Positions 27,335-57,331 of a DNA stretch of 64,000 nucleotides are shown one piece after another. The notes beneath the pieces were generated by a model, which was not told the origin of the DNA, searched no databases, and saw only the letters and a list, made by a program, of their open reading frames with translations. Location of the stretch: positions 79,313-143,312 of the forward strand of contig CAZDIP010000003.1 of NCBI GenBank assembly GCA_964505635.1. The letters are read 5' to 3'. Origin of the DNA: an uncultured Candidatus Saccharibacteria bacterium (GTDB lineage: Bacteria; Patescibacteriota; Doudnabacteria; UBA920). Each line of letters begins with the position of its first letter. The first letter of the stretch is position 1. The position numbers and the translations under genes are program-made.

Positions 27335-27372
27335 ATTTTTTGTTTAATTATTTAGAGTATATAGCACAAAAA

Positions 27373-27398
27373 AAATTCCCGCAAAAGCGGAAATTTTT
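27373..27398. terminator. terminator after ftsZ
   Basis: AAAAAAATTCCCGC-AAAA-GCGGAAATTTTT. Confidence 0.65.
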
Positions 27399-27407
27399 GA
27401 AAAACGG

Positions 27408-28610
27408 CTATTTCATTTTCTTTCTTATAAATGCCGGAATGTCCAGTTCTTCGTCGCTGTTCTCTTCAGCCGGAATTTCTATGGGCGCTATAGGCTGAAC
27501 GGGTTTTGGATTAAACAAAGGCTTGCGTGCTTCCACGGGCGGAGAAGGCGGACTTTTCGGTTCGCTAAAAATGGATTTTTGGGTATCTTGGTGCATTAGA
27601 ATTTGTCCCGGCAAAGGCCGCTTGCTGGACTCGTCAAAACCCGTGGCAATAACCGTAATGCGAACTTCCTCGCCCATTTCTTCATCAATAACCGCGCCAA
27701 ACTTAACCTTGGCATCCGGATCAATACTCTTGGTAATAACTTTGGCGGCTTCATCTATTTCAAACATGCCTAAATCCCTGCCGCCGGTTATATTAAACAA
27801 CACGCCCTTGGCGCCGTCAATAGCCAATTCAAGCAAAGGCGAATTAATAGCCAGACGGGCAGCTTCCTGAGCCCGGTTGTCTCCGCTGGCCCGGCCAATA
27901 CCCATAAGCGCGGTGCCGGCGTCCTGCATAATGCTGCGTACATCGGCAAAGTCCGCGTTAACTATTCCGTGGGTAGTGATTAAATCGGAAATACCGGAAA
28001 TGCCCTGGCGCAAAACTTCGTCCACGGTTTTAAACGCTTCTATTAAAGAAGTTTTTTTGTCTATAATCTGCAATATGCGGTCGTTGTGGATGGAAATTAT
28101 GGCGTCAACTTTGTCTTTTAAATTATCGTAACCTATTTCAGCTACCTCTTTTCTCTTGCTGCCTTCAAAGGTAAACGGCTTGGTAACCACGGCCACGGTT
28201 AGAATATTTTTGTTCTTGGCCAGTTCGGCTACAATAGGAGCCGCGCCCGTGCCCGTGCCGCCGCCAAGGCCGCAGGTTATAAATACCATGTCCGCGTTGT
28301 CAATTACTTCTTCCAGCTCCTCCACGCTTTCTTCCGCCGCCTGCCTTCCTAATTCAGGATTCATGCCGCTGCCCAAACCCTTGGTGGTGGTTTTACCAAT
28401 GTGAACTTTTTTGTCTGCCTGGTTATTGTGCAAAGCCTGGGCGTCCGTGTTAATGGCTATAAACTCCACGCCGCGAATGCCCAAAGCAGCCATTCGGTTA
28501 ACCGCGTTGGTGCCCGAGCCGCCAATACCTAAAACTTTAATCCTCGCAAATGTCTCTAATTTTGGTTTAACTTCCATATAATTTTTTTTACCCCCGTTTG
28601 AATTTTTCAT
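27408..28610 (-). CDS. ftsZ: cell division protein FtsZ
   Basis: [25 protein letters not shown]. By alignment to other FtsZ the real start may be the internal M at 28577. Confidence 0.95.
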
Positions 28611-28731
28611 AAATACTTAGTAATAATCCTTTCTATGGCTTTTTGCCGGACAAAATTTTGATTTCCGAGATACTTGCCAGAACTAAAATTTTAAATTGCC
28701 TGAATTCTGCCATCTCATTTAACAAAACAAA

Positions 28732-28794
28732 AAGCCAGCTCTATAAGGTTTACTAACGGTCTTTAGCTTGGCTTTTTGTTTTTGATTTTATATT
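28732..28794. terminator. terminator-like hairpin after the giant gene
   Basis: AAGCCAGCT...AGCTTGGCTTTTTGTTTTT. Confidence 0.45.
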
Positions 28795-28832
28795 TATTTG
28801 ATTATAGCACAAAGGCCTTAAGATGCAAAAAA

Positions 28833-31800
28833 CTACCTTCTCCTGCCAACCCTTCGCCTGGCTCTTGCGGGAGCCTGGATACTGCCAGAAGCATAATCTG
28901 CTATAACCGCTCTCCCCTCGCTCTCAAACCTGGCCAGAGTAGCAGGCTCAACTTTAATTTTTTGCCCTCGCCTTAGACCCATTCTCTGCGCGACTTCTGC
29001 CATTAAAAAAGGCTTACTTCTTAATACTACATCTACCAGCTCAAACGGCCTAATGTCGTAAACTGCCGCCAAATCATTTATTTGTTGGTCATTTAAGGTT
29101 TTGTTTTCCAAAGCGTCTTTCAAAGTTCTTCTGTTTACATCTTTAACCCACTTAGTATAGGCTACCGGCTCATTTCTTTGCCAGATGTCTTTAACAGCCG
29201 GGTCCTGGCTAAGTCTTAGCTGCATTAAAGCCATAAGCATTTTTTGGGGCGTGGTAGCGCCGGGAGCTATTATAGTTGCGGCCACAGGCCTAATATTTTC
29301 AACCTGCTCGGGCGTAAAGCCGTAAGATTCGTACAAACCAGTAACAAAATCATTAATTTTTAATTTTCGGTTTTTTACTTCACCTAAGCCTGTGCCGTAA
29401 ATAAACCGGGTTGGGTTTTGCTCAAAGCTATTTCTCAAATCCTGAGGCAAGATCTTTTCCTTATTCATATTTTGTAACCGCTCGCGCTTTGGCTTCCATT
29501 GCCCCAACTTTTTATTTAAATGATCCAGTCTTAAAATTTTTATACCTCTGACTTTTTTAGTACTTCCATCTGCATTTTTTATTTCTATCTCAGCAATTTC
29601 GTAATCTTTATACTTAACATACCTTGAATCATCGTTAATATCAGTAATAACATTACCAGCAGCATCTACCGGATCACCATCGTCGTTCGTTTCTATGCCC
29701 GCCAAACCTAACCACGCAGCAGCCCGTTGAATTTCCTGTGAATCAGCGGAAACTCCCCATTTTCTGGAAGTCTCATAAAACTCTCTTTGAAGCCTTTCAA
29801 TATTCAAATCTTCCGTGTCACCGGAAATTTGCTCGGCAAAAGACTTGCCATATACATTCATTTCACCCCATTCATTCCAAGCATTAGCCACAGGTTCGCC
29901 TTTTTTATACATACCTAATTCTCTTCTAGGGTCAGTCTCAAGCCAGGCTTTATTTTCATACTTAAACGGATTCCTATTTTTTGGCAACAAATTTTCACTC
30001 CCCCTTCGGCCGTTTCTTACCATATCTCCCAGTTCGGTGTCAGCCCCGGCATCTTTTTCCACCCTGGCTCCCCCAACTGCGCAATACGCACTGCCTCTAA
30101 TGGCGGTATTTCTCCCTTGTGTTATAACTTGTTTTTCACCGTTTCGTTTATCAACAACCAAATAGCCGGTATTTGGATCTACATACGGGACTTCTGTACC
30201 CTTATATCCATATCTATTCTGAGCATCCAAAAATTGGTCAAATCGGCTGGCCAAGAAAAAATTTGGCCACTTTTTATAGGTTTCATTATCATGGTCTATC
30301 CTTCCCACGAAACCGTCTAATCTTACTTCACTACCTGCACTGAAAGCCTGTTCGTTAGCATCAAATTCATCTATCATAATGCGTAAATATTTATCAGACA
30401 TATCTCTTAAATCAGCATCATTAGTCAAAATAAGAAAGTCTTTATTTTTTGGATTTTTTCTTGCCCCAGCCCTAATACAAGCCGCGTCATAAGCATATTT
30501 AATAATCCAGCCCCACATAGGGCGTTGTTCAAATTCTTTTTTCATAACCCGAATTTTTAGTTCAGGGTGTTTGACCTTATACTGTTTAATTACTTCTTCA
30601 GTATCATAAGCCTCAGGCATTCCATTTCGCACCCGCTGTTCAGCCCCATCCATTGTCTGGCCTTTTGCCGCCAACTCCGACTGAAGCTGTAACAATTTAT
30701 CTTTGGGGTGGTTTAAAAACAATATAACTTCAAATTCTTCAGATTTAACAGACCCGTTAGTAACCTGCTTTCTGTATTGCTCAAGTGTATGTTCTATTCC
30801 TTTACCCTCACCAAGAGTATAAACGGGTATACAAGCAACCGCCCTGCATTCATTTGTCATGCGTTCTCTTATGCCAGGCTGGCGCATTATTTCGGACAAA
30901 TCATTAAGGTAGTTTTGATCATTTTCAACCCGATTCTGCATATACCAAGAAAGTTCGTTTTCAAAATCCAAAACCGCCTGAGAGTTTTCTCTTAAAGTCG
31001 GAGACATTCGCTCAGTAAAAATTCTCCGTAACTCTGGGTTTTCTCTGCCATACCCGCCGTAAACAATATCCGTTCCTTCATCAGGAGCGGAACCCTTCAT
31101 CTCCTCAAGCCCCTTCCTTCGTCCCCTATACACCGGCACCGGCGGCACTACCACAAACGGCAAATGTTCTCCGCCTCCTTCCGGCGCGGTAATTTGAGTA
31201 ACAGGCGCGCTGACAATTTCCTTGGCAAAGCCCTGGGCTGTTGCCATGGTATGCCCGTCAAAACGCGCTTCCAAAAACCTAAACGGCAAGTTGCCGTCCT
31301 TAAGCTGGCTTTGGTCGGTAAACATTTTAGACCATTGTTCTCCCAAATATATCCTGCCTTTATTGTCCGCGCCTTCTATTAAATCGCTCAAACCTGACTT
31401 GTTCGCCCCTTCGGTGGGTATGACTGCGGCGCCAAAACGCTTAAAAAAACTGCCGTCGTTTATAGAAGCCTGTAGCTGCTCTTTTAAATGTTTTAATTTT
31501 TCAGCCACAAACTGGTTACCGCTCGCATCCTTATAGCCTTCCACCTCTCCAAAACCCGGCATGGTGTTTCCGCTTGCATCTATCTGCTTTTGAATATTTT
31601 GCAAAAAATTGTCAGCCATTTTGGAAATGTTTAAATAAACCTTGTCCCCGTGTTTTTCCAAATAGCCCATTTGCTGAGTGCCCTCAAACTCCAGCCACTT
31701 TTTGTGAATCTCGCTCCAAAACTGTCCGGGCTCGTCATGCCAATCCACTCTGGGATGCTCGCTTAAACCCGGATAAAGTTTTAAAGTTTCAGCCTTGTCT

Positions 31801-33770
31801 AAATTATGTATTCCGCTTAAAGTTTTGCCGCCCGGGGTTTCCGTTAAATTAAAGCCGTGTTTGGTAAGCCAGTCCTTGGCTTTGGTTGTCAAACTGCCGT
31901 CTGAGTTTAATTCCAGCCTGTCGCTTATTTTATTTCCCGAACCGTCCACTATATAATAGTCATTCGGGCTTGTGGTAGCGGCATCAGGCTTAAAGCTCAA
32001 ACCCGAGTCTAGTTTAAATTTATGCCCTCCCACTAAAACTTCACGCATAGTGCCGCCCAGCTTTACTCCCGGGGTTTCAAACAACTCTTCCGCCCGCCTT
32101 ACAGCCCCTTCTGCTAAAGTAGTTTTCTCGCCCACTGCCGCAAAGTGGGTTTTGTTCCGGACAAAATCAACGCCTCTTTCCAAAAGGCCTCTGGTTTCGT
32201 CATCCATCAACGCCCTGGCTTCCTGAACAGCCAAACCGAACGCTCCGCTCAAAAGCGCTGACTTAATAAAAGCTTTTCGCACTTTTTGTGTTTTTAATTC
32301 GGCAAAAATCTTGTTCTTAGCCTCTACCCCGCCCTCGCCTAAAAGCAAGGTGTCCCTATGGTCTGCCAAATAAATTCTAAAGTCTTCTTCAAAATTTCTG
32401 CCGTTAGCTTCGGTCCATTTTTTTAATGCTACTTTTGCCTTTGCGCGCATTATGTCTAGCTCTGTTTGCTCTTGGGCAGTCTTAGTTAAGTCCGAATAGC
32501 CTATTAAATCCACTTTGTACTTATTTTTCCTGTGTAAAAAGCCTTTGCGCTCTACCCCGGTGTCGGAAAGCTCAATTCTGGCTTCCAGGTCAGCTAAAAT
32601 CTGCATGGCGCTCGCAAATTCCGCCCTGGTTAAGTCTTTAGGTTCTTTACTTGCCAGTTTTTCAAACAACGAAACTTCCATTTCGCGTTTAATGTGCGCA
32701 GCCTTTTTAAACCCTATGCGCGACTCTTCCATCTCTTTCCTTCTTTCAGCTTTGTCTTGGTCAAATACTTTACCCTGCGCCATTTCCCTGGCATGCTGCG
32801 CGCGCTCTACTTCCAGTTTTCTGCTTTCCCGCATGGCGCCCACAGCGCCTGTCACCGCCATGCCCGCGCCGAAAACCGCGGCCGCTTTTTTTAGGCTCCC
32901 CTGCACGGCTTTGCCAGCCACGCTGTAAACCGCGGCCACTCCCACGGCCACGCTTGCCTCGTTTAAAACGCCGCCTGTCCACTTTTGAATGAAGTTGGTA
33001 ATTTTGTCCACCGCGTTTAACTGAGCCTCGGTCCTCACCGCGTCTTTTGCCCGGCCGACGACCACCTCAAAATGCTCATCCAGTTTTTGCAATGCCAAAG
33101 TATGCTGCAAGCCCTGCTCCACCTGTCTTTTTACTTCCTCCTTTGCCCACTTGGCTACCTCAAGCAAATTATCGGCAAACATTTTTCCCTTGCCAAACGC
33201 CTCGGGCGCGGCAGTCTTAACCCTGTCAAGTAATTTGTTTTTTTCCAGGTTAAAAGTTTCTTCGCTTATGCCGCCCTGGCTTTCTCCCCTGGCATAAGCT
33301 TTTATGAGGCCTAAAATTTCATTTTTAAAACTGCCGTCTGTAAGCTCCTGCCTGTGTTCGCCGGCCGCGGTATGGATAAATTCTTTTTCAAACTGCCTAC
33401 TTGCGGAAAATCTGTCGGTAATTGCCTGTACGGTGTTTTTATGGGCAATTTCCGCGTCCCTTCTCTGCGCTTCGCTTACGGTGTTGCCTCCTGCTTGCTT
33501 GTCTGAGTACAAGTTGCCGGAACTTCTTATTTCTTTCTCCGCATTATACCTGTCCAGCGTCTGCTTAAGCTCGCTGCGCTTCCATACAGTCTTGCCAAAA
33601 TGCTTTAGACGATTTAAAAAACCCTGAGGCTTTTGTGTTTCCTCGGTAGATTTTTCCGCGGCCACGTCTTTGGCGCGGCTTTCCGCTAAAGAGCTAATGT
33701 CAACAATGGCAATTCTTTTTTTGCCGCCGGTTAACTCTTGGTTTGACAGTCCCGAAAAACGCTCGGTCAT
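28833..33770 (-). CDS. giant protein (1645 aa) with an internal GT-A-like (family-2 glycosyltransferase-like) region. Function otherwise unknown.
   Basis: Uninterrupted 4.9-kb ORF. The segment ACIPVYTLGE...FEVILFLNHPKD...LILTNDADLRDMSD resembles GT2 motifs (DxD). Confidence 0.6.
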   Translation of the reverse strand: MTERFSGLSNQELTGGKKRIAIVDISSLAESRAKDVAAEKSTEETQKPQGFLNRLKHFGKTVWKRSELKQTLDRYNAEKEIRSSGNLYSDKQAGGNTVSEAQRRDAEIAHKNTVQAITDRFSASRQFEKEFIHTAAGEHRQELTDGSFKNEILGLIKAYARGESQGGISEETFNLEKNKLLDRVKTAAPEAFGKGKMFADNLLEVAKWAKEEVKRQVEQGLQHTLALQKLDEHFEVVVGRAKDAVRTEAQLNAVDKITNFIQKWTGGVLNEASVAVGVAAVYSVAGKAVQGSLKKAAAVFGAGMAVTGAVGAMRESRKLEVERAQHAREMAQGKVFDQDKAERRKEMEESRIGFKKAAHIKREMEVSLFEKLASKEPKDLTRAEFASAMQILADLEARIELSDTGVERKGFLHRKNKYKVDLIGYSDLTKTAQEQTELDIMRAKAKVALKKWTEANGRNFEEDFRIYLADHRDTLLLGEGGVEAKNKIFAELKTQKVRKAFIKSALLSGAFGLAVQEARALMDDETRGLLERGVDFVRNKTHFAAVGEKTTLAEGAVRRAEELFETPGVKLGGTMREVLVGGHKFKLDSGLSFKPDAATTSPNDYYIVDGSGNKISDRLELNSDGSLTTKAKDWLTKHGFNLTETPGGKTLSGIHNLDKAETLKLYPGLSEHPRVDWHDEPGQFWSEIHKKWLEFEGTQQMGYLEKHGDKVYLNISKMADNFLQNIQKQIDASGNTMPGFGEVEGYKDASGNQFVAEKLKHLKEQLQASINDGSFFKRFGAAVIPTEGANKSGLSDLIEGADNKGRIYLGEQWSKMFTDQSQLKDGNLPFRFLEARFDGHTMATAQGFAKEIVSAPVTQITAPEGGGEHLPFVVVPPVPVYRGRRKGLEEMKGSAPDEGTDIVYGGYGRENPELRRIFTERMSPTLRENSQAVLDFENELSWYMQNRVENDQNYLNDLSEIMRQPGIRERMTNECRAVACIPVYTLGEGKGIEHTLEQYRKQVTNGSVKSEEFEVILFLNHPKDKLLQLQSELAAKGQTMDGAEQRVRNGMPEAYDTEEVIKQYKVKHPELKIRVMKKEFEQRPMWGWIIKYAYDAACIRAGARKNPKNKDFLILTNDADLRDMSDKYLRIMIDEFDANEQAFSAGSEVRLDGFVGRIDHDNETYKKWPNFFLASRFDQFLDAQNRYGYKGTEVPYVDPNTGYLVVDKRNGEKQVITQGRNTAIRGSAYCAVGGARVEKDAGADTELGDMVRNGRRGSENLLPKNRNPFKYENKAWLETDPRRELGMYKKGEPVANAWNEWGEMNVYGKSFAEQISGDTEDLNIERLQREFYETSRKWGVSADSQEIQRAAAWLGLAGIETNDDGDPVDAAGNVITDINDDSRYVKYKDYEIAEIEIKNADGSTKKVRGIKILRLDHLNKKLGQWKPKRERLQNMNKEKILPQDLRNSFEQNPTRFIYGTGLGEVKNRKLKINDFVTGLYESYGFTPEQVENIRPVAATIIAPGATTPQKMLMALMQLRLSQDPAVKDIWQRNEPVAYTKWVKDVNRRTLKDALENKTLNDQQINDLAAVYDIRPFELVDVVLRSKPFLMAEVAQRMGLRRGQKIKVEPATLARFESEGRAVIADYASGSIQAPARARRRVGRRR

Positions 33771-33771
33771 A

Positions 33772-34089
33772 TTATTGGATTCCCAAATACGACTTCCTAA
33801 AATTGCTTAATTCTTCCTTAACCACTTCCTGCAAATTAGGGACATTCTGCTCGGTAAAGCTTGCTATTTGCTCTCCAGTGCCGTGCTTTAAAAGTTTTTC
33901 AAATTCTTCCAGTTTTTCGGGCGGCAAATGCGCCACAATCGCCGCGTTAACTATGTTTTCCACCCTGCCGGCCAAATCCTCTTTTATTTGAGCTAAAACT
34001 TCATCTTCCAAATTCTCAAACTTTTTTTCGGCAACCAAAAGTTCCACAAATTCTTTTATGTTCGGGTTGTTTAGCGCGCTTTGTGTCAT
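33772..34089 (-). CDS. hypothetical small protein, translationally coupled to the giant gene
   Basis: 105 aa. Its stop lies 2 nt from the giant-gene start. Confidence 0.5.
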   Translation of the reverse strand: MTQSALNNPNIKEFVELLVAEKKFENLEDEVLAQIKEDLAGRVENIVNAAIVAHLPPEKLEEFEKLLKHGTGEQIASFTEQNVPNLQEVVKEELSNFRKSYLGIQ

Positions 34090-34225
34090 ATGTTTTTAGC
34101 TTTTGTTTCTTTATAGTTAAATACAATCTTTGCTTTATTAAAGCATAAAAATAAAAATATGGCAAAAGTTGTCAAAGAAAAAATATAATGTTAATTTTTA
34201 TTATATATAATAAGTTTCTTAGTAT

Positions 34226-34465
34226 ATGTCCCAGGACTTTAAATCCATTTTTGCTTTTTTAGATCAAATGAAAATTGATCTAAAAAACGAAATTATTGAT
34301 GAATTGGCACCAAAATTTGATCGAATTCAGACTTCTTTAAACAACTTAACTTAAATGGTTAAGGGTTTTGAAGAAGAAATGATAGTAAACAGAAAAAGAA
34401 TAGAAAGACTGGAAGAATGGGCCAAACAGGTTTCCCAAAAAACTGGAATTCCGATTCCTTTTTAA
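34226..34465 (+). other. two tandem in-frame micro-ORFs (42 aa and 36 aa) separated only by TAA
   Basis: MSQDFKSIFAFLDQMKIDLKNEIIDELAPKFDRIQTSLNNLT-TAA-MVKGFEEEMIVNRKRIERLEEWAKQVSQKTGIPIPF. Both are coiled-coil-like. Confidence 0.2.
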
Positions 34466-34469
34466 AAAT

Positions 34470-34733
34470 TCATCCCTCACTTATTTTTGAAAGGCTTGAG
34501 CTAAGACGGTTTTTCAGATGTGTCATGCTTTGTCCAAAATTTTTCAATTTCTTTTCTCTTAGCCTGGCGTCTAATTCTGAAAAATATGCCTCATAATAAA
34601 CAAGTTTCCAAACATGTCCCTTAGTATAGCTAGATCTACCGCTATTATGTTCTATCATTCTTCTTTTTAAATCTATTGTAGATCCTAAATAGCTATCGCC
34701 AACTTCATTAATGATCAAATAAACATAAGTCAT
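34470..34733 (-). CDS. GIY-YIG nuclease-domain protein, second copy. Sits at the island border.
   Basis: YVYLIINEVGDSYLGSTIDLKRRMIEHNSG. Confidence 0.75.
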   Translation of the reverse strand: MTYVYLIINEVGDSYLGSTIDLKRRMIEHNSGRSSYTKGHVWKLVYYEAYFSELDARLREKKLKNFGQSMTHLKNRLSSSLSKISEG

Positions 34734-34773
34734 ATAAAAATTATATCAAAAATAAGTGAGGGATAAAAAGAAA

Positions 34774-34819
34774 AGAGCCCAGGGTCCAGTCGCAGATGCG
34801 AGTGGAAACCTTGGGCTCT
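34774..34819 (-). terminator. intrinsic terminator of island gene 1
   Basis: AGAGCCCAGGGT...ACCTTGGGCTCT. A 12-bp stem followed on the minus strand by UUUUCUUUUU. Confidence 0.65.
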
Positions 34820-34879
34820 TACAGCTTCTCGCCGCCTGGTGACAATTTAGTGCGTCATCCAGGGCGGCTGCTTGAAACG

Positions 34880-36250
34880 TTACGGCTGGGCCGGGGTCAT
34901 GACCGGCTTTGCGGCAGACGGCTGAGGCGCGGACTTGCCCTTCTGCGGCTTGGGCTCTTTGAGGGCGTTCTTCACGCCCCGGTTGCCCTTCGCCGCGAGC
35001 AACGCGCGCAGCGCCTCGGCCTTGTCCTTCACTTCGGCCACGGTCGCCGTGTTGGCGGCCATGTCCGTTCGCAACTTTCCAATCGCCGTCTTGTGCTCGT
35101 CCACATCCGTGCGGAGCGACGCTACCTGAGTCTTAACCCCCGAAACTTCATCAGCGGCCCAACCCCGAACCTGCGTCTCAGTCACACCACTACCACTTGT
35201 ACTTGCAGCGGACAACGCCTGAATGGCGTTGTTCATTGCGGTCATTGCGGTAGTAATCCGATCATCCGAAACAGCAGAGTCCACGGCTTCCTTCTTGATG
35301 CCGTTTCGACAAATCTTACCCGCTTCGGCAGAGCTACCCTTGCGGGCGCCCCATGCGCCCCTCCTCCAATCCGCGTCGGCGTTACAAAGACCTTCGATTG
35401 TCAATTTGAGAGTGGCGACTTGGCCTTCCAAACGGACAATGCGCGGATCAACAGTCGGGGGCGTAGGCGGAGCGGGTGCGGGTGCGGCGAGGATCTCGAT
35501 TTCAGAGGTGGTGGAGGCAAAACTGCCACCAACCGTCTCCAAAGCCTCAATCGTCCGCATACCGACCGTCGCAGCCACGTCCACCGCGACCATGATGTTG
35601 CTAACGCAGTCGCCGGCCTGGGAAGCACGAGACACGTCAACAACCACACCACTGCCCGAAACCCGAACGTTCTGGAGCGGGTCTTTGGTGCAGAAGGTCA
35701 TCGCCGTTGTGGTTCCAGCCTTCAACTGCGCCGGTTCCACCTTGGTGAAAGTCACCGCAGCGTCGGAACGCAGAGCGCCACCAGCACCGAGCAAGGCAAG
35801 GAGAGCGATGGCGTGAGTGATGCTGGGCGGCGTCTCGTGACCCCTGCGTCGACGACGGACAAACCACCATACCGCAAGAATCAAGGCCGAAACAACAATC
35901 AGCCACATCCAATTGCGACCAAACCAACCCCAGTCAATTTCAAAGACTGGTTCGGTCTTGTTGTCACGTTGGGTGTTGAGTTTGAGTTGGTCGACGAGCT
36001 TGTCGACTTTCGTCATAAGCTCGCCCATCTCGTCCCGGGTAGCGACCCCACCGAGTTTGGTTTCGATCGCCTCGAGCTTATCCGTCAAGACCTTCAGTTG
36101 CTCGGGCGTTGCGGCGGGCGCGGGGACTGCGGGCACGACGACGACGGGTTGGCCGGTTGCCGGCTTCCCGATCTGGGCGGTCGCGTTGTTTGTTACCATC
36201 GCCGCGAGGGCGACGGCGAGAGCGAACGAGAAAAACTTGGAGTTGCACAT
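34880..36250 (-). CDS. high-GC secreted/membrane coiled-coil protein (island gene 1)
   Basis: 456 aa. Signal peptide MCNSKFFSFALAVALAAMVTNNATAQ. TM WMWLIVVSALILAVWWFVRRRRR. PAPAPPTPPT linker. About 60% GC. The antisense ORF 34796-36274 is rejected. Confidence 0.7.
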   Translation of the reverse strand: MCNSKFFSFALAVALAAMVTNNATAQIGKPATGQPVVVVPAVPAPAATPEQLKVLTDKLEAIETKLGGVATRDEMGELMTKVDKLVDQLKLNTQRDNKTEPVFEIDWGWFGRNWMWLIVVSALILAVWWFVRRRRRGHETPPSITHAIALLALLGAGGALRSDAAVTFTKVEPAQLKAGTTTAMTFCTKDPLQNVRVSGSGVVVDVSRASQAGDCVSNIMVAVDVAATVGMRTIEALETVGGSFASTTSEIEILAAPAPAPPTPPTVDPRIVRLEGQVATLKLTIEGLCNADADWRRGAWGARKGSSAEAGKICRNGIKKEAVDSAVSDDRITTAMTAMNNAIQALSAASTSGSGVTETQVRGWAADEVSGVKTQVASLRTDVDEHKTAIGKLRTDMAANTATVAEVKDKAEALRALLAAKGNRGVKNALKEPKPQKGKSAPQPSAAKPVMTPAQP

Positions 36251-36711
36251 GTGTGTTTCCTTGTAGAAGTTTGAGAATTCGGTTATTGATGCATTTCAAA
36301 TACGATGCACCAAAAACAAACTTGCAAAAATTCGCCAAGGCCACTTTCGTGCCCTTTGCAAAAAAAGTTAAAGGTAATTTTATTCTTCGAGCTGGTCGAG
36401 AAGATAAAATTATCAATATGTTCTCCATAAAGTCGAACAATATTGATTTCAACCCTTTTCGCAAAGGACACTGCTTTCTGCGCAACTGCCTGCAAAAACT
36501 TATAAATAACGTTTCAAAAATTCCTCCAACGACTTCTCCGCTGTTAATTTTATAGCGAAGTCGTGCTCCGAAGCTCTCTTGTTTAAATCAAATGATAACA
36601 TTTAATTCAAACGGCCTCGTAACACATGTCGCATGTAAATTAATTAGCGAAGGAGTACTACAAATTGTTAAACAACTTGTCAAAATAAAGCTTTTGTACA
36701 GCAATAATTTT

Positions 36712-36752
36712 GACCTAATATTATAACAAATATTTTACTTATTGTCAATACT
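36712..36752 (-). promoter_or_regulatory. consensus sigma70-type promoter for island gene 1
   Basis: Minus strand: TTGACA (36744-36749), 18-nt spacer, TATAAT (36720-36725). Confidence 0.55.
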
Positions 36753-36881
36753 TTTAGCAAAATTAGCGCATATTTAAAACAAATAATGCATAAAGTCTTA
36801 TATTTATAACAAAAAATCAAGGTGGCGAGACTGGCTCAACCACCCTGACAGATGTTGTTTGCCTATAACTTCCTAACGCCT

Positions 36882-36931
36882 GTCATTCCGGACTTGCCTG
36901 CCCGCTTTTGGCGGGATCCGGAATCCAGTAT
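36882..36931. repeat. R2 hairpin element, copy 1
   Basis: GTCAT-TCCGGA-cttgcctgcccgcttttggcggga-TCCGGA-ATCCAGTAT. Confidence 0.5.
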
Positions 36932-36960
36932 TTTAGATAAGCTTAAGCTCTTTTGAATCG

Positions 36961-38136
36961 TTACGGCGTGGGCATTACAACCCGGGTCGGGAGCTTCACA
37001 AGCTCGCTCCCGGCAGGCCAAAAATACCACCCTGCGCCTGCGCCCACAACACACAACCCCTTCTCTACAATGTCACCCGCACCGTGGCGCTTAAAGCCCC
37101 CCAGACCCGGGATTAGCTGATACCCGCAGTTCAGAAGGGGTATCTTACTCCAGGTCGGTCGTCCCGGCTTTTTTGTAGGAGCATTCACTGTGACCACGAA
37201 ACTACAGGTCACTGTGTGCCCTTGGCTGTCCTTGCCGGTTACTCGAAAGCGGTGTGAGCCAGGTGCGAGGGTGCTAGGGTCAATATTGATAGCCGGAGTT
37301 CTGAGTCCGCCTTCAACACCTTCCTGTGTCCACTCAAGATCCGTGACCTCACCTTTGAAGTGAGGTATTACCTTGAACAGGGGTGTACTCGGATCTATAT
37401 TCGTCAGTTGTACAGACGACTCAAACCCCACGCACACCGCGCATTCGTGCGACGGCGGCTTGGCAATGGCCGTTGGCGGAGGCGGTGGCGGAAGGAATTG
37501 GCGATTTTTGAACAAAACCACCGACACCTTCCCGCTTTCCACTGCGACTCTGCTAGCCGAGGCGTAGATCATCTCCCACCCTTCGCTAGGAAGTTCACTA
37601 ATGTCATAGCTGCCTTGCGGCAACTCAACATCCGCGAACCCGCGATGATCCACCCGAACTCTGTGGTTTCCGACGCGGAACTCAAAAGGTAGCACATTGG
37701 ACATGCGACGGCTGTCGCTATCAAACTGCTCCTTCTGAATTCGTACGATTCCGGGGGGCGGAGGAGGAGGTGGCGGAGCGGGCTTGGGGGGGCAGCCTTT
37801 GCAGCGCGCCTGGTTGACGCACTGTTCCAGCACCACCCTCAAGCCGTCATCCGACAGCCAACCGAGTGTTCCAGCCGGAACGCGGTACGTGTTGCGGTCG
37901 TCCACCAACGAGTGGCGACCCTCAACACAATACTGCATGCCGATAAGCGACTCAGATCCGGAAAAAACGTAACGGCGCATTAACTTTCCTTGTGCCTTCA
38001 CGCTCTCCAATTCCGCGCCGCACCGTCTCATTGCCGTAGGCGAATCCTGCCGCGGTACCAAATTACGAGTCTGCTGCCCCAGCGCCAGGCCGGCGCCGAG
38101 GACAACGGAAATAAACCAGAAAACGATTCTAGACAT
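36961..38136 (-). CDS. high-GC secreted protein with polyproline linkers and a HYR/Ig-like C-terminal domain (island gene 2)
   Basis: CAGGAGGAGcaaaATG SD. Signal peptide MSRIVFWFISVVLGAGLA. Two PPPPPPP tracts. HTVTCSFVVTVNAPT is HYR-like. Confidence 0.7.
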   Translation of the reverse strand: MSRIVFWFISVVLGAGLALGQQTRNLVPRQDSPTAMRRCGAELESVKAQGKLMRRYVFSGSESLIGMQYCVEGRHSLVDDRNTYRVPAGTLGWLSDDGLRVVLEQCVNQARCKGCPPKPAPPPPPPPPGIVRIQKEQFDSDSRRMSNVLPFEFRVGNHRVRVDHRGFADVELPQGSYDISELPSEGWEMIYASASRVAVESGKVSVVLFKNRQFLPPPPPPTAIAKPPSHECAVCVGFESSVQLTNIDPSTPLFKVIPHFKGEVTDLEWTQEGVEGGLRTPAINIDPSTLAPGSHRFRVTGKDSQGHTVTCSFVVTVNAPTKKPGRPTWSKIPLLNCGYQLIPGLGGFKRHGAGDIVEKGLCVVGAGAGWYFWPAGSELVKLPTRVVMPTP

Positions 38137-38267
38137 TTTGCTCCTCCTGTGAGCTGTCTGAAAAACTCTAAAATCTTGCGGCCCAGCATGGGTCGCTGAC
38201 ATGTGCCAGCGGCTTGCCGGACACTGTTTAAAGCCATAAAAAGCCTTAAACAACGTACGGCAATTTG

Positions 38268-38305
38268 ACTATATATTATATCAATTTTTTACATAAATGT
38301 CAATA
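38268..38305 (-). promoter_or_regulatory. consensus promoter for island gene 2
   Basis: Minus strand: TTGACA (38298-38303), 17-nt spacer, TATAAT (38275-38280). Confidence 0.55.
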
Positions 38306-38340
38306 TTAATACTAAAATTAACTTATTTAAAAAGAAAAAA

Positions 38341-38373
38341 GCCTCCTACCCAAAACACGTCCGGGCAGGAGGC
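38341..38373 (-). terminator. intrinsic terminator of island gene 3
   Basis: GCCTCCTACCC...GGGCAGGAGGC, followed on the minus strand by UUUUUUCUUUUU. Confidence 0.65.
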
Positions 38374-38480
38374 GAATACCCAAGGCTGCAGCTCATACCT
38401 CAACGCGCGCTTATGCGCGCCTTGCGGGAGCACCTCAAAGCCTTGAGTTAGTTTAGATGAAAACGATTCAGCCGCCGAAC

Positions 38481-39656
38481 TTAGGAAACCACTTGTAGTC
38501 TCCTTTTTTTCCGATGGCCAAAATAGATCTTGTACGCCACCAAGGACGTGGTTCCTGGTACTTCTTCAACATAATGTGCCAGGCCGGCACTCTCTAAACA
38601 CTTCAAAATGGGCCTTAGCTGCCTCTTCGATGTAACCCTCTGATCAAAGGCCATAAAGCGGCCATCGGCGTCCTCTCGGAGATTCTGGGCCAGAAGAGCA
38701 CTGGCAAGCGAGTTTTCTTTGACAGCCTTAATCACGGTTGCCAAAAACAGCTCCTCGGGCGACATCTTCATGTACGCAATCTCCTCTTCCGAGAAAGAGG
38801 AGCTTGCGGGCACAATCTTCGGTGGACGCTCCTCACCGTCTTGCGAAGAAAGCGCCACCCAAATTATGCACACAAAGATCACCGCTACTAAGGCAACCGC
38901 CAAAAACACAAAAAGTTTTTCCGGAGCCGGATCACCCTTCCTGTCTTCTGGCGGTGGAGGAGGGATAAATACATCACCCATTTCCGGTGCAGTCTTCGGC
39001 AAAAGTCTAGACGCATACGCATCCGCAACGGGATCCTGTTCTCCTTCCTTTGCCTTCTCCGCTGAGTCCGCCGAAGCAGATCCTGGAACAGTCGGGGTCG
39101 AAGTGGATGTGGGGGCTGGTGTTGATGCTGGTGTCGGTACGGAAGCTGATGCGGGCGTCGGTATTTGGGCGCTCGCCGCCAGCTTATTATTCTTGGATGC
39201 GGATTCAGCCTTTGGCTTTGGCGCTGTGACCGTTGTGCTCACGAGGGGTTTTGCCACTTCTGTTGTTGGTTTGGGGTCAGAAGTTGGCGTTGCCACCTTT
39301 TCCTTGCCTTTGCCAAACAGTTGGTTCTCAACTGCGAGACAGCGAGCAAGCCGTTTCTGATCCACCTTGGCTCCGTCGGGCAGCCAGTAGATACGAGACT
39401 TCAGCCGCCGGATTTCAAACGTCGCCGGATTTTCGCAAGACAGCCGTGGGCCGTCTGGAGAGCCATGGCGCAATTCCGTGTAAAGATTAGGGTCAAGTCC
39501 GGCGTTTTTCAGAACGGCCATCGGGCCCCTCTTGGAGACCCCACCGTCTTCTTCAGCCCTGGCATACAACGTAATTTCGCGATCTTCGGCCTGCAGGCTT
39601 GCGCCCAGCAGGAAAAAGACCGCTAACGCGAACAGAAAGATTCTCTTCGTTTTCAT
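38481..39656 (-). CDS. high-GC single-pass membrane protein with a Pro/Thr/Ala/Ser-rich stalk (island gene 3)
   Basis: Signal peptide MKTKRIFLFALAVFFLLGASLQA. PT-rich low-complexity region. TM LFVFLAVALVAVIFVCIIWVAL. C-terminal cytoplasmic domain. Confidence 0.7.
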   Translation of the reverse strand: MKTKRIFLFALAVFFLLGASLQAEDREITLYARAEEDGGVSKRGPMAVLKNAGLDPNLYTELRHGSPDGPRLSCENPATFEIRRLKSRIYWLPDGAKVDQKRLARCLAVENQLFGKGKEKVATPTSDPKPTTEVAKPLVSTTVTAPKPKAESASKNNKLAASAQIPTPASASVPTPASTPAPTSTSTPTVPGSASADSAEKAKEGEQDPVADAYASRLLPKTAPEMGDVFIPPPPPEDRKGDPAPEKLFVFLAVALVAVIFVCIIWVALSSQDGEERPPKIVPASSSFSEEEIAYMKMSPEELFLATVIKAVKENSLASALLAQNLREDADGRFMAFDQRVTSKRQLRPILKCLESAGLAHYVEEVPGTTSLVAYKIYFGHRKKRRLQVVS

Positions 39657-39780
39657 CTCTCATTTCCTCTTTTGTATTTTTTCAAGAACTCAGCCAAAAA
39701 CAAAACTGCTGTTTTGGTCTGGTCGCTGTCCATAAAATAAAAACAACAATCAAACCAAAAGATATAACATATAACGAAAT

Positions 39781-39809
39781 ATTTTATCATAAATTTCACA
39801 TATTGTCAA
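39781..39809 (-). promoter_or_regulatory. promoter for island gene 3 (divergent partner)
   Basis: Minus strand: TTGACA (39804-39809), 17-nt spacer, TAAAAT (39781-39786). Confidence 0.5.
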
Positions 39810-39819
39810 TAATCTTTTA

Positions 39820-39848
39820 TTGACATATACAAGCAATTATTATATAAT
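39820..39848 (+). promoter_or_regulatory. consensus promoter for island gene 4
   Basis: TTGACA (39820-39825), 17-nt spacer, TATAAT (39843-39848). The two divergent -35 boxes lie in the inverted repeat TATTGTCAATAA/TTATTGACATA. Confidence 0.55.
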
Positions 39849-39987
39849 ATTTTGATTAAATATATTGTTCAGTTGGCAGTGCTGCCTGCTGATAGTATCT
39901 TTAAGCCCTCCTAACTAGGCGGGTAAACACGAAAACCAAAAACCCCAAACGCCTAAAAGCTTTGGGCAAGCCTTAAGGAGGCGCGCA

Positions 39988-40590
39988 ATGAAATGGTTAT
40001 TTTGGATTACGTTGGTGGTGTTTGTGTGGGTGGGTGGATGCCAGAGCCTGGCTCTGGGCCCGGTTGACTTGTTGGTTGAGCTGCTGGGGGTGGGACTCAT
40101 AACGCTTGCCAATGCGCTCTTGGCTTGGCTGATAATGTCTTGGCTGGCGAACTGGATGCAGGTTCAAAGTCCGAGGCTCGTAAAATCCTGGATTTTGTTC
40201 CTTCTCCTGTTAGGAATACCTCACTACTACGCCAGCTACAAGCTGGCGCCGCTCAAGCGTCAGTTCCGAACCATCGCGAGCGGCAGCGGGCAGGTGGAAG
40301 CCGGAGAACCCGGCGGCATCAACACCCTCAACTTTGGGGGGGAGTTAGACAAAATTGTCTTCCTCCGCATGCGGTGGCTGGCACAGCACCAGTACCTGCC
40401 AGCAGGTTCTGGTAAGTGGTGGGTGACTGACGGCTATTCGCCCAATCTGGCGATGTTGTACTTCCGGTTACCGCTTACAAAAAAGTGGTACGACAGAATG
40501 ATGGTCGACGCCATCGGCGCCGACTACTACAAACTCCTGGGCGAAAGCCCACCAGCAGAAACCAAAGCGCAGCCTAAAAAGCTGCGCTAA
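39988..40590 (+). CDS. high-GC polytopic membrane protein (island gene 4)
   Basis: AAGGAGG SD 6 nt before the ATG. 200 aa. Three N-terminal TM helices followed by a soluble domain. Confidence 0.7.
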   Translation: MKWLFWITLVVFVWVGGCQSLALGPVDLLVELLGVGLITLANALLAWLIMSWLANWMQVQSPRLVKSWILFLLLLGIPHYYASYKLAPLKRQFRTIASGSGQVEAGEPGGINTLNFGGELDKIVFLRMRWLAQHQYLPAGSGKWWVTDGYSPNLAMLYFRLPLTKKWYDRMMVDAIGADYYKLLGESPPAETKAQPKKLR

Positions 40591-40607
40591 GAACCAACAT
40601 ACAGCAA

Positions 40608-40644
40608 AGAGCCGCGCCCTTTTCGGAAGAAGGGTCGCGGCTTT
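40608..40644 (+). terminator. intrinsic terminator of island gene 4
   Basis: AGAGCCGCGCCCTT-TTCGGAAG-AAGGGTCGCGGCTTTT. Confidence 0.65.
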
Positions 40645-40701
40645 TAACTTGCACTTAATTTACTATTTTAAAACTAAAAATTGTACGGCGTAGATTACTT
40701 A

Positions 40702-41949
40702 TTATGGTAAAAAAGATTTAAACCAATTTTTCATTTTATTTAAATTTTGACTGAGGCCAAAGTTTTTAAACATTTTTCCAAACTCCGCTCCGGAGCCGCT
40801 GCCCAAACGGTTGCCCCATAAAATCAGCCCGACTGCTGTGGCAAAAGAAGGTTCATTTACTCTGTCAATGACCGAGTTTATATTCTGCGCCTGGCCTATG
40901 GTAACAGGCAAGCGCAAATGCTTTTTAGCGTATTCGGCAATACCGGGCATTTTGGCTCCCCCGCCTACCAACACAATGCCTGAGGGCAATTTGCCGTCGC
41001 GATTGATTTTTTTCAGCTCAGCGTTTATATGGTCAAAAATTTCCTCAAGCCTGGCCTGCATAATCTCCACCACCAAACCGCGGGTGGTAGACTGTTCTTC
41101 GGAAGCATCTATTTTTGACAAGTCTATTTCTTCGTTTTTGTCTATGGCTTTTAAGTCGGTATGCCCGAAGGCCAATTTTACTTTTTCCGCCGTCTCAATG
41201 CTGGTTCTAAGGCCAATAGCAATGTCGTTGGTTATATGCTGGCAGCCAATAGGCAAAACACTGGTATGCAGCAAATCCCCTTCTTCGTAAACAGCAATGC
41301 CGGTAGTGCCGGCTCCCAAGTCCACCACGCACACGCCCAAATCTTTTTGCCGCTTGTTAAGCACGCTTTCTGAAGCCGCACACACAGACAAAACCAGGTT
41401 GTCTATTTCCAGTCCGGCCTGCGCAATACAACGGCTTAAATTTCTCACAAACGGCAAACCGGCCTGCACAATAATAGTTTCCACTTCCAAACGGATGCCC
41501 GTCATGCCCAACGGATCTTTTATTCCACCCTGCCCGTCCAAAGTAAAAGTTTTAGGAAAAACGTGCAAAACTTCCTTGTTTTGCGGAATAGAAATGGCCT
41601 GACTGGCGTCTATGCAGCGCACAATGTCGCTTTCCGAAATCTCCCCGTCCGCCCGGCTAACGGCAATCACGCCATGGGAGTTAACCGAGGAAATATGGTT
41701 GCCGCCCACGGAAACATTGGCTGAAGTTATGGGTACGCCGGTCATCCTTTCCACTTTTTCCAAAGCAGAAGAAATGCCGGACACCGCCTCTTCCACGTCC
41801 ACAATCACGCCTTTGCGAATGCCGGTAGAAGGCACCTCGCTGACGCCAATAATATTTAAAGTCGGGGAATTCGGCGAAAGCTTGGCCAAAACCGCGCGCG
41901 CAAAAAAAGTGCCTATGTCCAAACCTACAATGTAATGTTCTTTTGCCAT
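40702..41949 (-). CDS. ftsA: cell division protein FtsA
   Basis: MAKEHYIVGLDIGT...VVDLGAGTT...LVGGGA actin-fold ATPase. Confidence 0.92.
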   Translation of the reverse strand: MAKEHYIVGLDIGTFFARAVLAKLSPNSPTLNIIGVSEVPSTGIRKGVIVDVEEAVSGISSALEKVERMTGVPITSANVSVGGNHISSVNSHGVIAVSRADGEISESDIVRCIDASQAISIPQNKEVLHVFPKTFTLDGQGGIKDPLGMTGIRLEVETIIVQAGLPFVRNLSRCIAQAGLEIDNLVLSVCAASESVLNKRQKDLGVCVVDLGAGTTGIAVYEEGDLLHTSVLPIGCQHITNDIAIGLRTSIETAEKVKLAFGHTDLKAIDKNEEIDLSKIDASEEQSTTRGLVVEIMQARLEEIFDHINAELKKINRDGKLPSGIVLVGGGAKMPGIAEYAKKHLRLPVTIGQAQNINSVIDRVNEPSFATAVGLILWGNRLGSGSGAEFGKMFKNFGLSQNLNKMKNWFKSFLP

Positions 41950-42013
41950 TTATATTGCACAAATTACTAAATTTTACTACTTAATGGCGTTAGTATAATT
42001 CGTAATTAGTAGT

Positions 42014-42466
42014 TTATTTTAATTTTTCTTTCAACACTTTAGCCAACAAAGCCCCGTCAGCCGCATTGCCGGCCTTCAATTTTAGCTGGCCCATTAACTT
42101 GCCAAAATCGCCGGTTGTGTAAGCTTGTCCAGACAGCATGCCTTCTACCATTTGGGCTATTTGTTCTTCTGACATTTGCTGGGGCAAATATTTTTGAAAA
42201 ACATCAGCCTCACCCAGCTCTTTCTCCATAAGCTCGGTTCGTCCGCCGGTTTTAAAACTTTCCGCCGCTTCCTTGCGCTTTTTTAACTCCGAACGGATTA
42301 AGGCTAAAATTTCATCTTCACTTAAATCTTCTTTCATTTTAGCTACTTTTTCATTTTGAATCCTGGTTTTTAAGCCGCGCAAAGCCTCCAAAGCAAGGCG
42401 GTCTTTGGCTTTTAGCGCTTCTTTTAAATCGTTTTCAATTTGAGAAAGTGACAACATTGTTTTCAA
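42014..42466 (-). CDS. GatB/YqeY domain protein
   Basis: 150 aa. LKEALKAKD...ELKKRKEAAE...GKLMGQLK. Confidence 0.85.
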   Translation of the reverse strand: MKTMLSLSQIENDLKEALKAKDRLALEALRGLKTRIQNEKVAKMKEDLSEDEILALIRSELKKRKEAAESFKTGGRTELMEKELGEADVFQKYLPQQMSEEQIAQMVEGMLSGQAYTTGDFGKLMGQLKLKAGNAADGALLAKVLKEKLK

Positions 42467-42562
42467 TAAATCTCAAGTTACAAATTTCAAATAAACTCCG
42501 CTCGCTGTTTTATGTCTAAAAATCTATTTGAAATTTGGCTTTTGGAATTTAATTTAAAGAAC

Positions 42563-45466: not shown

Positions 45467-45587
45467 AAAGTTATTTCGCAACATTTGGTGGACAATAGAG
45501 GACTCGAACCTCTGACCTCGCCGATGTGAACGGCGCGCTCTAACCAACTGAGCTAATTGTCCTCACCAAGTGTTGCGAAATAACTTT
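45467..45587. repeat. 17-bp perfect inverted repeat bracketing tRNA-Val
   Basis: AAAGTTATTTCGCAACA (45467-45483) pairs with TGTTGCGAAATAACTTT (45571-45587). Confidence 0.8.
45486..45562 (-). tRNA. tRNA-Val (anticodon CAC)
   Basis: Reverse complement: GGACAAT acceptor stem, D-arm GCTCAGTTGGTTAGAGC, anticodon loop TTCACAT, T-arm GGTTCGAGTCC, and 3' CCA. Confidence 0.85.
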
Positions 45588-56038: not shown

Positions 56039-56050
56039 AAATATTTTTTA

Positions 56051-56117
56051 CCATACCGAGTGCACCCGAGGTATCCCTTAAATTAATTAAAGGGATTCTT
56101 CGCTACGCTCTGAATGG
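56051..56117 (-). repeat. R1 leader repeat, copy B (minimal 67-nt form). Starts 13 nt upstream of the DHS-like ATG.
   Basis: CCATACCGAGTGCACCCGAGGTATCCCTTAAATTAATTAAAGGGATTCTTCGCTACGCTCTGAATGG. Confidence 0.6.
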
Positions 56118-56260
56118 TGGTTTGTTTCCCCGCGAATTCCTGTCTTTCAAGTTCGAGCGGCTTAATTACAAAATAATTTTAACAAATAAGATTTGTGTGT
56201 CAATCTAAATACTAAAGTAGCGGCTGTTGCCTCTCGACTTTGTTCGAGACATTCGCCAGC

Positions 56261-57301: not shown

Positions 57302-57331
57302 GAATTAAAAAAATTAAATGAATGACAAAAA

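Follow-up and report, generated by a model that had tools for sequence, protein, structure and literature searches.

The canonical division and cell wall (dcw) cluster, of the Escherichia coli or Bacillus subtilis type, ends in ftsQ-ftsA-ftsZ. Bacteria of the candidate phyla radiation (CPR, or Patescibacteria) are ultra-small, mostly episymbiotic organisms with reduced genomes, and to our knowledge their cell division is almost unstudied. Dispersed or reduced dcw clusters occur in some phyla, for example in Cyanobacteria, and CPR genomes were explicitly left out of the survey of dcw clusters (PMC8871954). We analysed a 64,000-nucleotide stretch of a CPR contig (CAZDIP010000003.1, positions 79,313 to 143,312; hereafter the window), in which ftsA (40702-41949) is followed by ftsZ (27408-28610) in the usual order on the minus strand, and the two are separated by 12,091 bp (28611-40701) holding at least eight genes. 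A preliminary description, made from the sequence of the window, had reported this split and had taken it for an adjacent pair interrupted by accessory DNA. The split itself stands; comparison with relatives leads us to consider it probable that the interval is a vertically inherited, clade-wide architecture of one Patescibacteria clade and not a recent insertion. The core of this architecture is a gene of the DUF5663 family followed by a gene for a 1645-aa protein, here called the giant gene.

Gene order in the window and its relatives

Both division proteins carry the domains that define their families: FtsZ has the Tubulin/FtsZ GTPase domain as well as the FtsZ C-terminal domain, and FtsA has the actin-like FtsA domain with its inserted SHS2 (1C) subdomain (Pfam; Table 1). 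Read in the direction of transcription, the interval between them holds a convergent 200-aa open reading frame (ORF), two ORFs of 391 aa each, one of 456 aa, a GIY-YIG gene, micro-ORFs, the DUF5663 gene and the 1645-aa ORF, in agreement with the earlier inventory of a 105-aa gene, a 1645-aa gene, micro-ORFs, a GIY-YIG gene and a 5.9-kb high-GC stretch, coordinates included. The genes 5' of ftsA encode signal peptidase, HisRS, HIT, S21 and YqeY, and ftsZ is followed by uncharacterised genes and then by NrdR, ribonucleotide reductase (RNR), CobA, ComEC, PPIase, NDK and RelA/SpoT. Pfam scans of the larger ORFs found no ftsQ, mur, ftsW or ftsI in the 64-kb window, which, together with the housekeeping neighbours, places ftsA and ftsZ in a housekeeping backbone and not in a dcw cluster.

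Loci of relatives (numbered with the prefix L) were gathered from the contigs of giant-protein homologues, from species-representative genomes scanned with a giant-protein profile, from the contigs of FtsZ homologues and from the contig of one homologue of a protein encoded in the GC-rich stretch, and a metagenome scan with a single giant protein gave one extra locus; the loci were compared with the proteins of the window by tblastn. FtsZ has at least 120 clusters of homologues that are 79-85% identical, and within the close clade identity to the window is 76-84% for FtsZ, 68-73% for FtsA (L001, L002, L008 and L039) and 34-49% for the giant protein. The DUF5663-giant pair lies in the same interval in 12 independent relatives. 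It is followed, after 0.2-8 kb, by FtsZ at ten loci (L001, L002, L005, L007, L008, L009, L040, L042, L044 and L046), and it is preceded, at a distance of 4.4-8.7 kb, by YqeY-FtsA at six (L001, L002, L008, L039, L040 and L045), with ftsA and ftsZ 11.3-18.9 kb apart in the four relatives where both ends are visible. The downstream backbone NrdR-RNR-CobA-ComEC-PPIase-NDK is likewise common to the window and its relatives, and the conserved order reads HisRS-HIT-S21-YqeY-FtsA-(variable GC-rich genes)-DUF5663-giant-(0.2-8 kb)-FtsZ-...-NrdR-RNR-CobA-...-ComEC. The preliminary description had itself proposed a synteny comparison; run here, it finds the giant gene commonly between ftsA and ftsZ, the very outcome named there as speaking against accessory DNA inserted into an adjacent pair, and L043 aside this holds for every relative in which the interval can be viewed. 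The presence of DUF5663-giant between ftsA and ftsZ across relatives marks the arrangement as ancestral for the clade, which is labelled Doudnabacteria in some records. Assignment to the Patescibacteria agrees with the DUF5663 gene, the overall gene content and the names of related records, 'Patescibacteria group bacterium' and 'Candidatus Doudnabacteria'. Two genes of 415 and 432 aa upstream in L005, considered as FtsA and HisRS, were rejected, as they match in length only and are unrelated by BLASTP.

More distant CPR records, labelled Parcubacteria, Moranbacteria, Uhrbacteria, Nomurabacteria and Saccharibacteria, keep the DUF5663 and giant genes together and away from ftsZ. At seven loci (L020, L025, L029, L031, L032, L036 and L037), mostly with Saccharibacteria or Saccharimonadales labels and one labelled Parcubacteria, YqeY follows the giant gene at a distance of 8-10 kb, and FtsA appears at the edge of two of them (L029 and L037). 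The segment 5293-19561 of L029 has fmt, def, priA, a comF-like gene and recJ between giant and YqeY, and adk and a methionine aminopeptidase gene between YqeY and FtsA. This locus also carries a second DUF5663 gene 3' of the giant gene (10224-10658).

The giant protein and its DUF5663 partner

A single base separates the DUF5663 stop from the giant ATG (TAAtATG), bearing out the coupling that had been claimed for the two genes, and across CPR DUF5663 is the constant upstream partner of the giant gene, at gaps of 1-51 nt. DUF5663 has no known family function, and none of the papers in the collection searched mentions it. Among 1.84 billion representatives, a profile of the N-terminal 900 residues of the giant protein matched 1212 clusters at 50% identity, 828 of them at E <= 1e-30; the matches listed are mostly 1,200-2,000 aa long. 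Neither the single sequence nor the profiles gave a Pfam, NCBIfam or PDB sequence match for the giant protein, whose relatives form a large protein family without a Pfam model.

Structure prediction gives the C-terminal half of the protein an enzymatic character. The AlphaFold2 (AF2) model of residues 881-1645 has a confident core (pLDDT ~90), for which Foldseek against the PDB returned 6yv7 (PcManGT) at 1e-5, followed by 2z87, 7sp7, 5tzi and GtrB, with nine structures of glycosyltransferase (GT) family 2 (GT2) matching the GT-A core at E = 1e-5 to 6e-4 and probability 1.0. Both the Rossmann-like GT-A fold, as predicted, and the acidic D-x-D motif that binds metal and nucleotide sugar in such enzymes are present, the latter as a D-A-D at residues 1118-1120 that is invariant in 13 sequences (columns D238, A239 and D240 of alignment A3); no curated GT family sequence model matched the domain. 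The protein has no signal peptide, and this, together with the GT-A fold, leads us to read it as an enzyme of the cytoplasmic face and not as a surface protein. The models are consistent with a protein that is probably membrane-associated, where a low-confidence, Gly/Ala-rich hydrophobic stretch at about residues 250-300 could be a membrane hairpin, and we infer from the predicted fold that it may glycosylate the envelope. The earlier view of the interval as a store of surface-protein genes therefore holds for the GC-rich genes, which encode signal peptides or membrane anchors, but not evidently for the giant gene. The C-terminal part also varies between genomes: GT9 takes the place of GT-A in P0005 (L045), a Ser/Thr kinase is added in P0006 (L005), the C-terminus is unrelated in P0016 (L003), and in L046 a shortened giant gene is followed by a separate HAD-like gene.

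GC-rich genes, transcription signals and variable flanks

Between ftsA and DUF5663 the GC content reaches 53-63% over about 34750-40600 (5.9 kb), against 42.6% for the window and 30-41% in the spacers, and the same position has 55-73% GC, again with AT-rich spacers, in L001, L002, L005, L007 and L008, which come from independent samples. All four products encoded here are predicted to start with a signal-peptide-like or lipoprotein-like segment, and three of the four have further hydrophobic segments. One of them, named isl430, has, besides its signal peptide and a poly-proline linker, two conserved parts, a Cys-containing domain of about 100 aa and the C-terminal region, and homologues of it occur in the same interval of L001, L008, L039, L040 and L045. 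A search of 5.8 billion proteins gave 11 isl430 matches, all of them unnamed metagenomic proteins, and both of those whose contigs were examined (P0025 in L040 and P0032 in L045) sit in this interval. The 456-aa protein has weak homologues (L008_5972 and L002_7033), and the 391-aa ORF at 38481-39656 has no Pfam or NCBIfam match. Conservation of the stretch in place, with one gene family at the same site, indicates that it is neither a chimera nor a recent import; position, composition, gene families and promoter module are all shared with relatives, and the proposal of a high-GC accessory island is not upheld. The island genes are fast-evolving yet related across genomes.

The GC enrichment affects all three codon positions of the island genes. 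Expression-linked codon bias was ruled out as the source of the excess at third positions (GC3), since SAM synthetase, GroEL, FtsZ and RNR, with GC3 of 0.45-0.52, are not elevated, and amino-acid composition does not account for the enrichment either. The cause may be GC-biased gene conversion in a surface-protein locus that recombines, or acquisition long ago, at the base of the clade. Outside the interval, a PfkB-family sugar kinase gene (60862-61818) is also GC-rich (GC 0.55, GC3 0.61), and its product is not secreted. Open reading on both strands and high GC in a low-GC genome had raised the suspicion of an rRNA operon, which was dismissed as Rfam places no rRNA in the stretch: at gathering thresholds the window has only a 5S rRNA gene at its end (63808-63923) and two tRNAs elsewhere, and a permissive Rfam scan of 27000-42500 found nothing. 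The remainder of the rRNA operon may lie just past the window's end. No template/variable repeat pair of the kind found in diversity-generating retroelements was detected in the interval.

Promoter and terminator function, like high expression of the GC-rich genes, is predicted here from pattern. The extended -10 element reported earlier, TGCTATAAT, is present at 28801-28809 on the minus strand, with TTTGCA upstream at 17-nt spacing, and in 10 of 11 genomes TTTGC-N17-TG[C/T]TATAAT or a variant with one to two mismatches precedes ftsZ, between -45 and -330 relative to the ATG and also where the upstream neighbour is not the giant gene. Its occurrence whatever the neighbour supports a promoter specific to ftsZ. 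At the other end, ftsA is followed by terminator-like hairpins, one found by scan (40588->40566, a 10-bp stem with 6 GC) and one by direct reading (a GCCGCG..CGCGGC stem with a T-run, 40641-40601). Terminators of its own for ftsA and a conserved extended -10 promoter for ftsZ would mean that the two division genes are expressed separately, and these signals support both their status as separate transcription units and the independent transcription of ftsZ that had been proposed.

The stable hairpin upstream of ftsZ is likewise real as a predicted fold (none of 200 shuffles folds as well), at 28724-28782 instead of the 28732-28794 first given; L002 has an analogous hairpin (z = -4.5), and L008, in which the giant gene is 8 kb away, has no significant one. 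Along the direction of transcription the ftsZ promoter comes first and the hairpin second, so that transcripts from this promoter must pass through it; a barrier that shields ftsZ from the giant gene and spares the transcripts of the promoter itself, as the first account of it implied, is therefore too simple a reading. We infer that it may be the terminator of the giant operon, read through by ftsZ transcripts; alternatively, it could be a regulatory or stabilising leader of the ftsZ mRNA.

The GC-rich genes share a promoter-like element of their own. A 39-nt module (family D1) occurs in three copies about 1.5 kb apart (36717-36755, 38272-38310 and 39778-39816), one before each of the three minus-strand GC-rich genes. 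Its perfect motif TTGACA-N14-TGnTATAAT has only two occurrences in the 64-kb window, where chance would give 0, and both lie in the island; the motif recurs in the variable regions of L002, L005, L008, L039, L043 and L044. For the 456-aa gene, the copy can be aligned with the module in front of the L002 homologue. Between this putative promoter and the ATG lies an AT-rich leader of about 470 nt (36250-36720), which has no Rfam or Pfam match; the homologous genes of L002 and L008 also have leaders, of 250-550 nt, and the idea of a conserved leader was given up, as only the promoter module aligns with relatives.

Gene content differs between genomes in two stretches, from ftsA to DUF5663 and from giant to ftsZ, and as judged from the loci compared, gene gain and loss is limited to these two flanks of the DUF5663-giant core. 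An insertion hotspot, as first suggested, is thus a fair description of the flanks, where genes turn over, but not of the interval as a whole, in which the core is fixed. The variable genes include a trypsin-like protease in L001 and, between ftsA and DUF5663 of L002 (4424-6271) and L042 (1-1674), a tubulin/FtsZ-like paralogue of 585-615 aa with a divergent GTPase domain; the two copies are 32% identical to each other, and the paralogue is absent from the window. Directly upstream of ftsZ, on the opposite strand, L043 (8510-9643) and L044 (8510-9679) carry a T4SS_pilin (PF18895) gene, part of a block of 6 to more than 10 kb that lies between the giant gene and ftsZ. Depending on the relative, a PaaX_M-like gene (about 180 aa) stands right after ftsA or right before ftsZ; it has no counterpart in the window. 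Among the genes on the far side of ftsZ, four relatives have a bAvd / 23S-rRNA-IVS-type four-helix-bundle gene directly 3' of it; in the window ftsZ is followed by a gene for a 559-aa protein without Pfam match (25655-27334), and a Memo-like gene lies at 24771-25679.

The AT-rich GIY-YIG gene is the only element of the window that is absent from all relatives at this site, with no match in their loci. It is enclosed by a 22-nt inverted repeat (arms 34469-34490 and 34746-34767, 95% complementary), one arm lying over its last codons and the other in its upstream region, and the segment 34469-34767 may be a miniature mobile unit. Of the hallmarks of a GIY-YIG homing endonuclease, no attached DNA-binding domain and no residence in an intron, intein or homing site was found; it is a bare catalytic domain of 87 aa, free-standing between genes. 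The micro-ORFs and small ORFs in the AT-rich spacers have no Pfam match. Taken as a whole, the interval does not qualify as a mobile island: none of its ORFs has an integrase, recombinase or transposase domain by Pfam or NCBIfam, no direct repeats flank it, and no tRNA lies at its edges, the nearest (Val, 45486-45562) being 3.5 kb beyond ftsA. Nor is the interval polymorphic in presence, as the relatives sampled carry both the core and the GC-rich block at this site and only the flanks vary. Elsewhere in the window, what looks like a polyamine pathway cluster comprises adjoining genes at 54938-58288 for a deoxyhypusine-synthase-like protein, an agmatine/peptidyl-arginine deiminase and a carbon-nitrogen hydrolase.

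Table 1. Features of the ftsA-ftsZ interval, with positions in the window unless a relative's locus is named; promoter and terminator entries are predictions.
Feature	Position	Strand	Basis and remarks
ftsA	40702-41949	-	Pfam FtsA PF14450 1e-36, SHS2_FTSA PF02491 3e-28
Two terminator-like hairpins after the ftsA stop	40566-40641	-	Overlap the 3' end of the convergent 200-aa gene
200-aa ORF	39988-40590	+	Lipoprotein-like signal peptide, hydrophobic segments; GC3 0.70; coding less certain
Putative sigma-70 promoter of the 200-aa ORF	39820-39848	+	Consensus 12/12; motif scan
Putative promoter of the 391-aa ORF at 38481-39656	39809->39781	-	11/12 with TG; motif scan
391-aa ORF	38481-39656	-	Signal peptide, Ala/Pro/Ser-rich region, one transmembrane segment
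Terminator-like hairpin after the 391-aa ORF at 38481-39656	38373->38341	-	14-bp stem; scan
Putative promoter of the isl430 gene	38303->38275	-	Perfect extended promoter; motif scan
391-aa isl430 family protein	36961-38136	-	Secreted, Cys-rich, poly-Pro
Promoter-like TTGACA-N14-TGtTATAAT	36720-36748	-	Perfect; ~470 nt upstream of the 456-aa gene
456-aa ORF	34880-36250	-	Signal peptide, one transmembrane segment; GC3 0.69
87-aa GIY-YIG gene	34470-34733	-	Pfam PF01541 4e-14; GC 30%
Putative 42-aa micro-ORF	34226-34354	+	Convergent with GIY-YIG; a second short ORF follows, to ~34460
Promoter-like TTGACA-16-TATTTT	34148-34175	-	~55 nt upstream of DUF5663; 10/12 positions
DUF5663 gene, 105 aa	33772-34089	-	Pfam PF18908 3e-12, above gathering score
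1645-aa giant gene	28833-33770	-	~900-aa conserved, mostly helical N-terminal region, GT-A domain, helical tail
Predicted GT-A (GT2-like) domain of the giant protein	29931-30842	-	~aa 977-1280; AF2 and Foldseek
Putative ftsZ promoter TTTGCA-17-TGcTATAAT	28801-28829	-	Motif scan; conserved in relatives
Hairpin, A-tract/17-bp stem/U-tract	28724-28782	-	-21.1 kcal/mol, z = -5.0
ftsZ	27408-28610	-	Pfam Tubulin PF00091 9e-47, FtsZ_C PF12327 1e-36
PaaX_M-like genes of relatives	L040 3954-4502; L045 2907-3461; L005 10484-11023; L046 10423-10971		
bAvd / 23S-rRNA-IVS-type genes of relatives, after ftsZ	L001 16998-17354; L002 16164-16529; L040 18856-19194; L044 11322-11660		

Competing explanations and comparison with known systems

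In the explanation that we favour, the DUF5663-giant pair, widespread in CPR, would have come to adjoin ftsZ on its upstream side at the base of the clade and would have been inherited in place since. Its fixed core would consist of the tightly coupled DUF5663 and giant genes with a promoter-like site of their own, the giant protein joining a mostly helical N-terminal region of about 900 aa without a recognisable fold to a predicted GT-A domain, and its C-terminal part being swapped or supplemented in relatives. The stretch from ftsA to DUF5663 would hold three to five genes, transcribed independently of one another, for Pro/Ala-rich proteins that are secreted or anchored in the membrane; each of these genes would have a GC-rich coding sequence under a near-perfect sigma-70 promoter in an AT-rich spacer. 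Transcription of ftsA would end at its own terminators and that of ftsZ would start from the conserved extended -10 promoter, and the GIY-YIG gene with its inverted repeats would be the sole private addition in the window. Several observations weigh against this account or narrow it. L043 has at least 10 kb of other genes 5' of ftsZ with no giant gene in that flank, and L007 has no ftsA in the 9.5 kb upstream of DUF5663, which shows that the architecture is not rigid; 'ancestral' covers this clade only, the direction of the original rearrangement lying outside the claim. The statements on promoters, terminators and topology draw on sequence patterns only, the 200-aa ORF and the 391-aa ORF at 38481-39656 have no detectable homologues, and the AF2 model of giant residues 1-900, mostly helical and of moderate quality (pLDDT 63), matches no known fold, a fold search giving no match below E = 0.1. 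Furthermore, the four island genes have a GC3 of 0.55-0.70, whereas 52 other ORFs average 0.44 (sd 0.06); vertical descent alone is insufficient to explain this excess, and an old foreign origin is possible.

That an adjacent ftsA-ftsZ pair recently received some 12 kb of accessory surface-protein DNA at an insertion hotspot is suggested by the differing content of the flanks, with 5.6-8.7 kb of mostly non-homologous genes after ftsA, a spacing from giant to ftsZ of 8 kb in L008 and of 6 kb, T4SS_pilin gene included, in L044, and a block of at least 10 kb before ftsZ in L043, as well as by the atypical GC of the interval and the private GIY-YIG gene with its inverted repeats. For the core, such an insertion is refuted by the DUF5663-giant pair and the isl430-family gene standing at the same place in relatives; the conserved position of the high GC, the host-like AT-rich spacers with their common promoters, the lack of an integrase, tRNA or flanking direct repeat and the likely cytoplasmic nature of the giant enzyme, as modelled, also speak against it, and overall we consider recent insertion very unlikely. 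Even less probable, in our estimate, is that the GC-rich stretch is foreign DNA, either a chimeric assembly join or an island from a high-GC donor, for which its 53-63% GC in a 42.6% GC context, a GC3 of 2-4 sd above that of other genes and island proteins without Pfam or NCBIfam match would speak: at least five assemblies, independent of one another and made from different samples, show the same jump in composition at the locus, the isl430 homologues are only unnamed metagenomic proteins and the two contigs examined carry this very interval, and the AT-rich spacers bear the genome's own type of promoter. These observations exclude a chimera; that the stretch was acquired long ago, at the base of the clade, is possible.

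The conserved position of the pair might also reflect function, with giant, DUF5663 and the secreted GC-rich proteins working with FtsA and FtsZ, for instance in making or glycosylating new surface at the septum, as a division or envelope module kept together by selection. The pair stays directly upstream of ftsZ though the giant protein has diverged to 34-49% identity, a tubulin/FtsZ-like paralogue occupies the same interval in L002 and L042, and in seven mostly Saccharibacteria or Saccharimonadales loci the giant gene keeps within 8-10 kb of YqeY, with FtsA at the edge of L029 and L037. Elsewhere in CPR, however, the pair is not beside ftsZ, in L029, the one Saccharimonadia-type locus analysed gene by gene, the genes in between (fmt, def, priA and recJ) are unrelated housekeeping genes, a promoter or terminator for each unit argues against an operon, and up to 8 kb of unrelated genes separate giant from ftsZ; we regard such a module as unlikely, and a functional link between DUF5663-giant and division as possible and weakly supported. 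A more specific version, in which the giant family acts with FtsA and FtsZ in a Patescibacteria-specific module that makes or glycosylates the new surface where the cell divides, and in which unusually frequent recombination at a diversifying surface-protein locus raises, through GC-biased gene conversion, the GC of the genes for secreted proteins, appears to us quite unlikely; it may also take in the strongly promoted GC-rich secreted proteins and the tubulin-like paralogue of some genomes. Over these alternatives we prefer vertical inheritance of a clade-wide arrangement, under which the split of ftsA and ftsZ is real, yet only a modest peculiarity in gene order. The non-adjacency of the two genes and the local jump in GC are inherited in this group and should not be taken as signs of recent insertion or misassembly, and the locus offers a shortlist of candidate lineage-specific envelope or division factors, the most notable leads being the giant/DUF5663 family and the GC enrichment of genes for secreted proteins.

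Among known proteins, the closest to the giant are GT-A enzymes of the GT2 family (PcManGT 6yv7, chondroitin polymerase K4CP 2z87, hyaluronan synthase 7sp7, TarS 5tzi and GtrB), which its residues 977-1280 resemble in predicted fold and in the DAD motif; unlike them, it has no Pfam GT sequence match and carries the domain behind an uncharacterised N-terminal region of 900 aa. The 105-aa protein is a member of Pfam DUF5663 (PF18908), a family whose only clue from context is that it is always paired with the giant gene. With genomic islands the interval shares its atypical composition, its content of secreted and membrane proteins and its variation in gene content between genomes, but it differs from them in having no integrase, tRNA target or flanking repeats, in lying at the same site in relatives and in its host-type promoters. 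As in lineages with dispersed dcw clusters, division genes stand off the mur/fts cluster as a lineage-wide trait and not as a strain-level accident; in contrast to those lineages, ftsA and ftsZ here are still linked, 11-19 kb apart on either side of a specific conserved pair of genes. The locus keeps two traits of the canonical end of the dcw cluster, namely ftsA ahead of ftsZ on one strand and proteins with complete canonical domain sets, whereas the two genes are parted by at least eight genes and 12.1 kb instead of being adjacent, ftsA follows YqeY and not ftsQ, and the terminator and promoter signals are separate. Overall, the ftsA-ftsZ end of the dcw cluster exists here in a variant specific to the lineage, in which the proteins are canonical and the adjacency and the mur/fts context have been lost.

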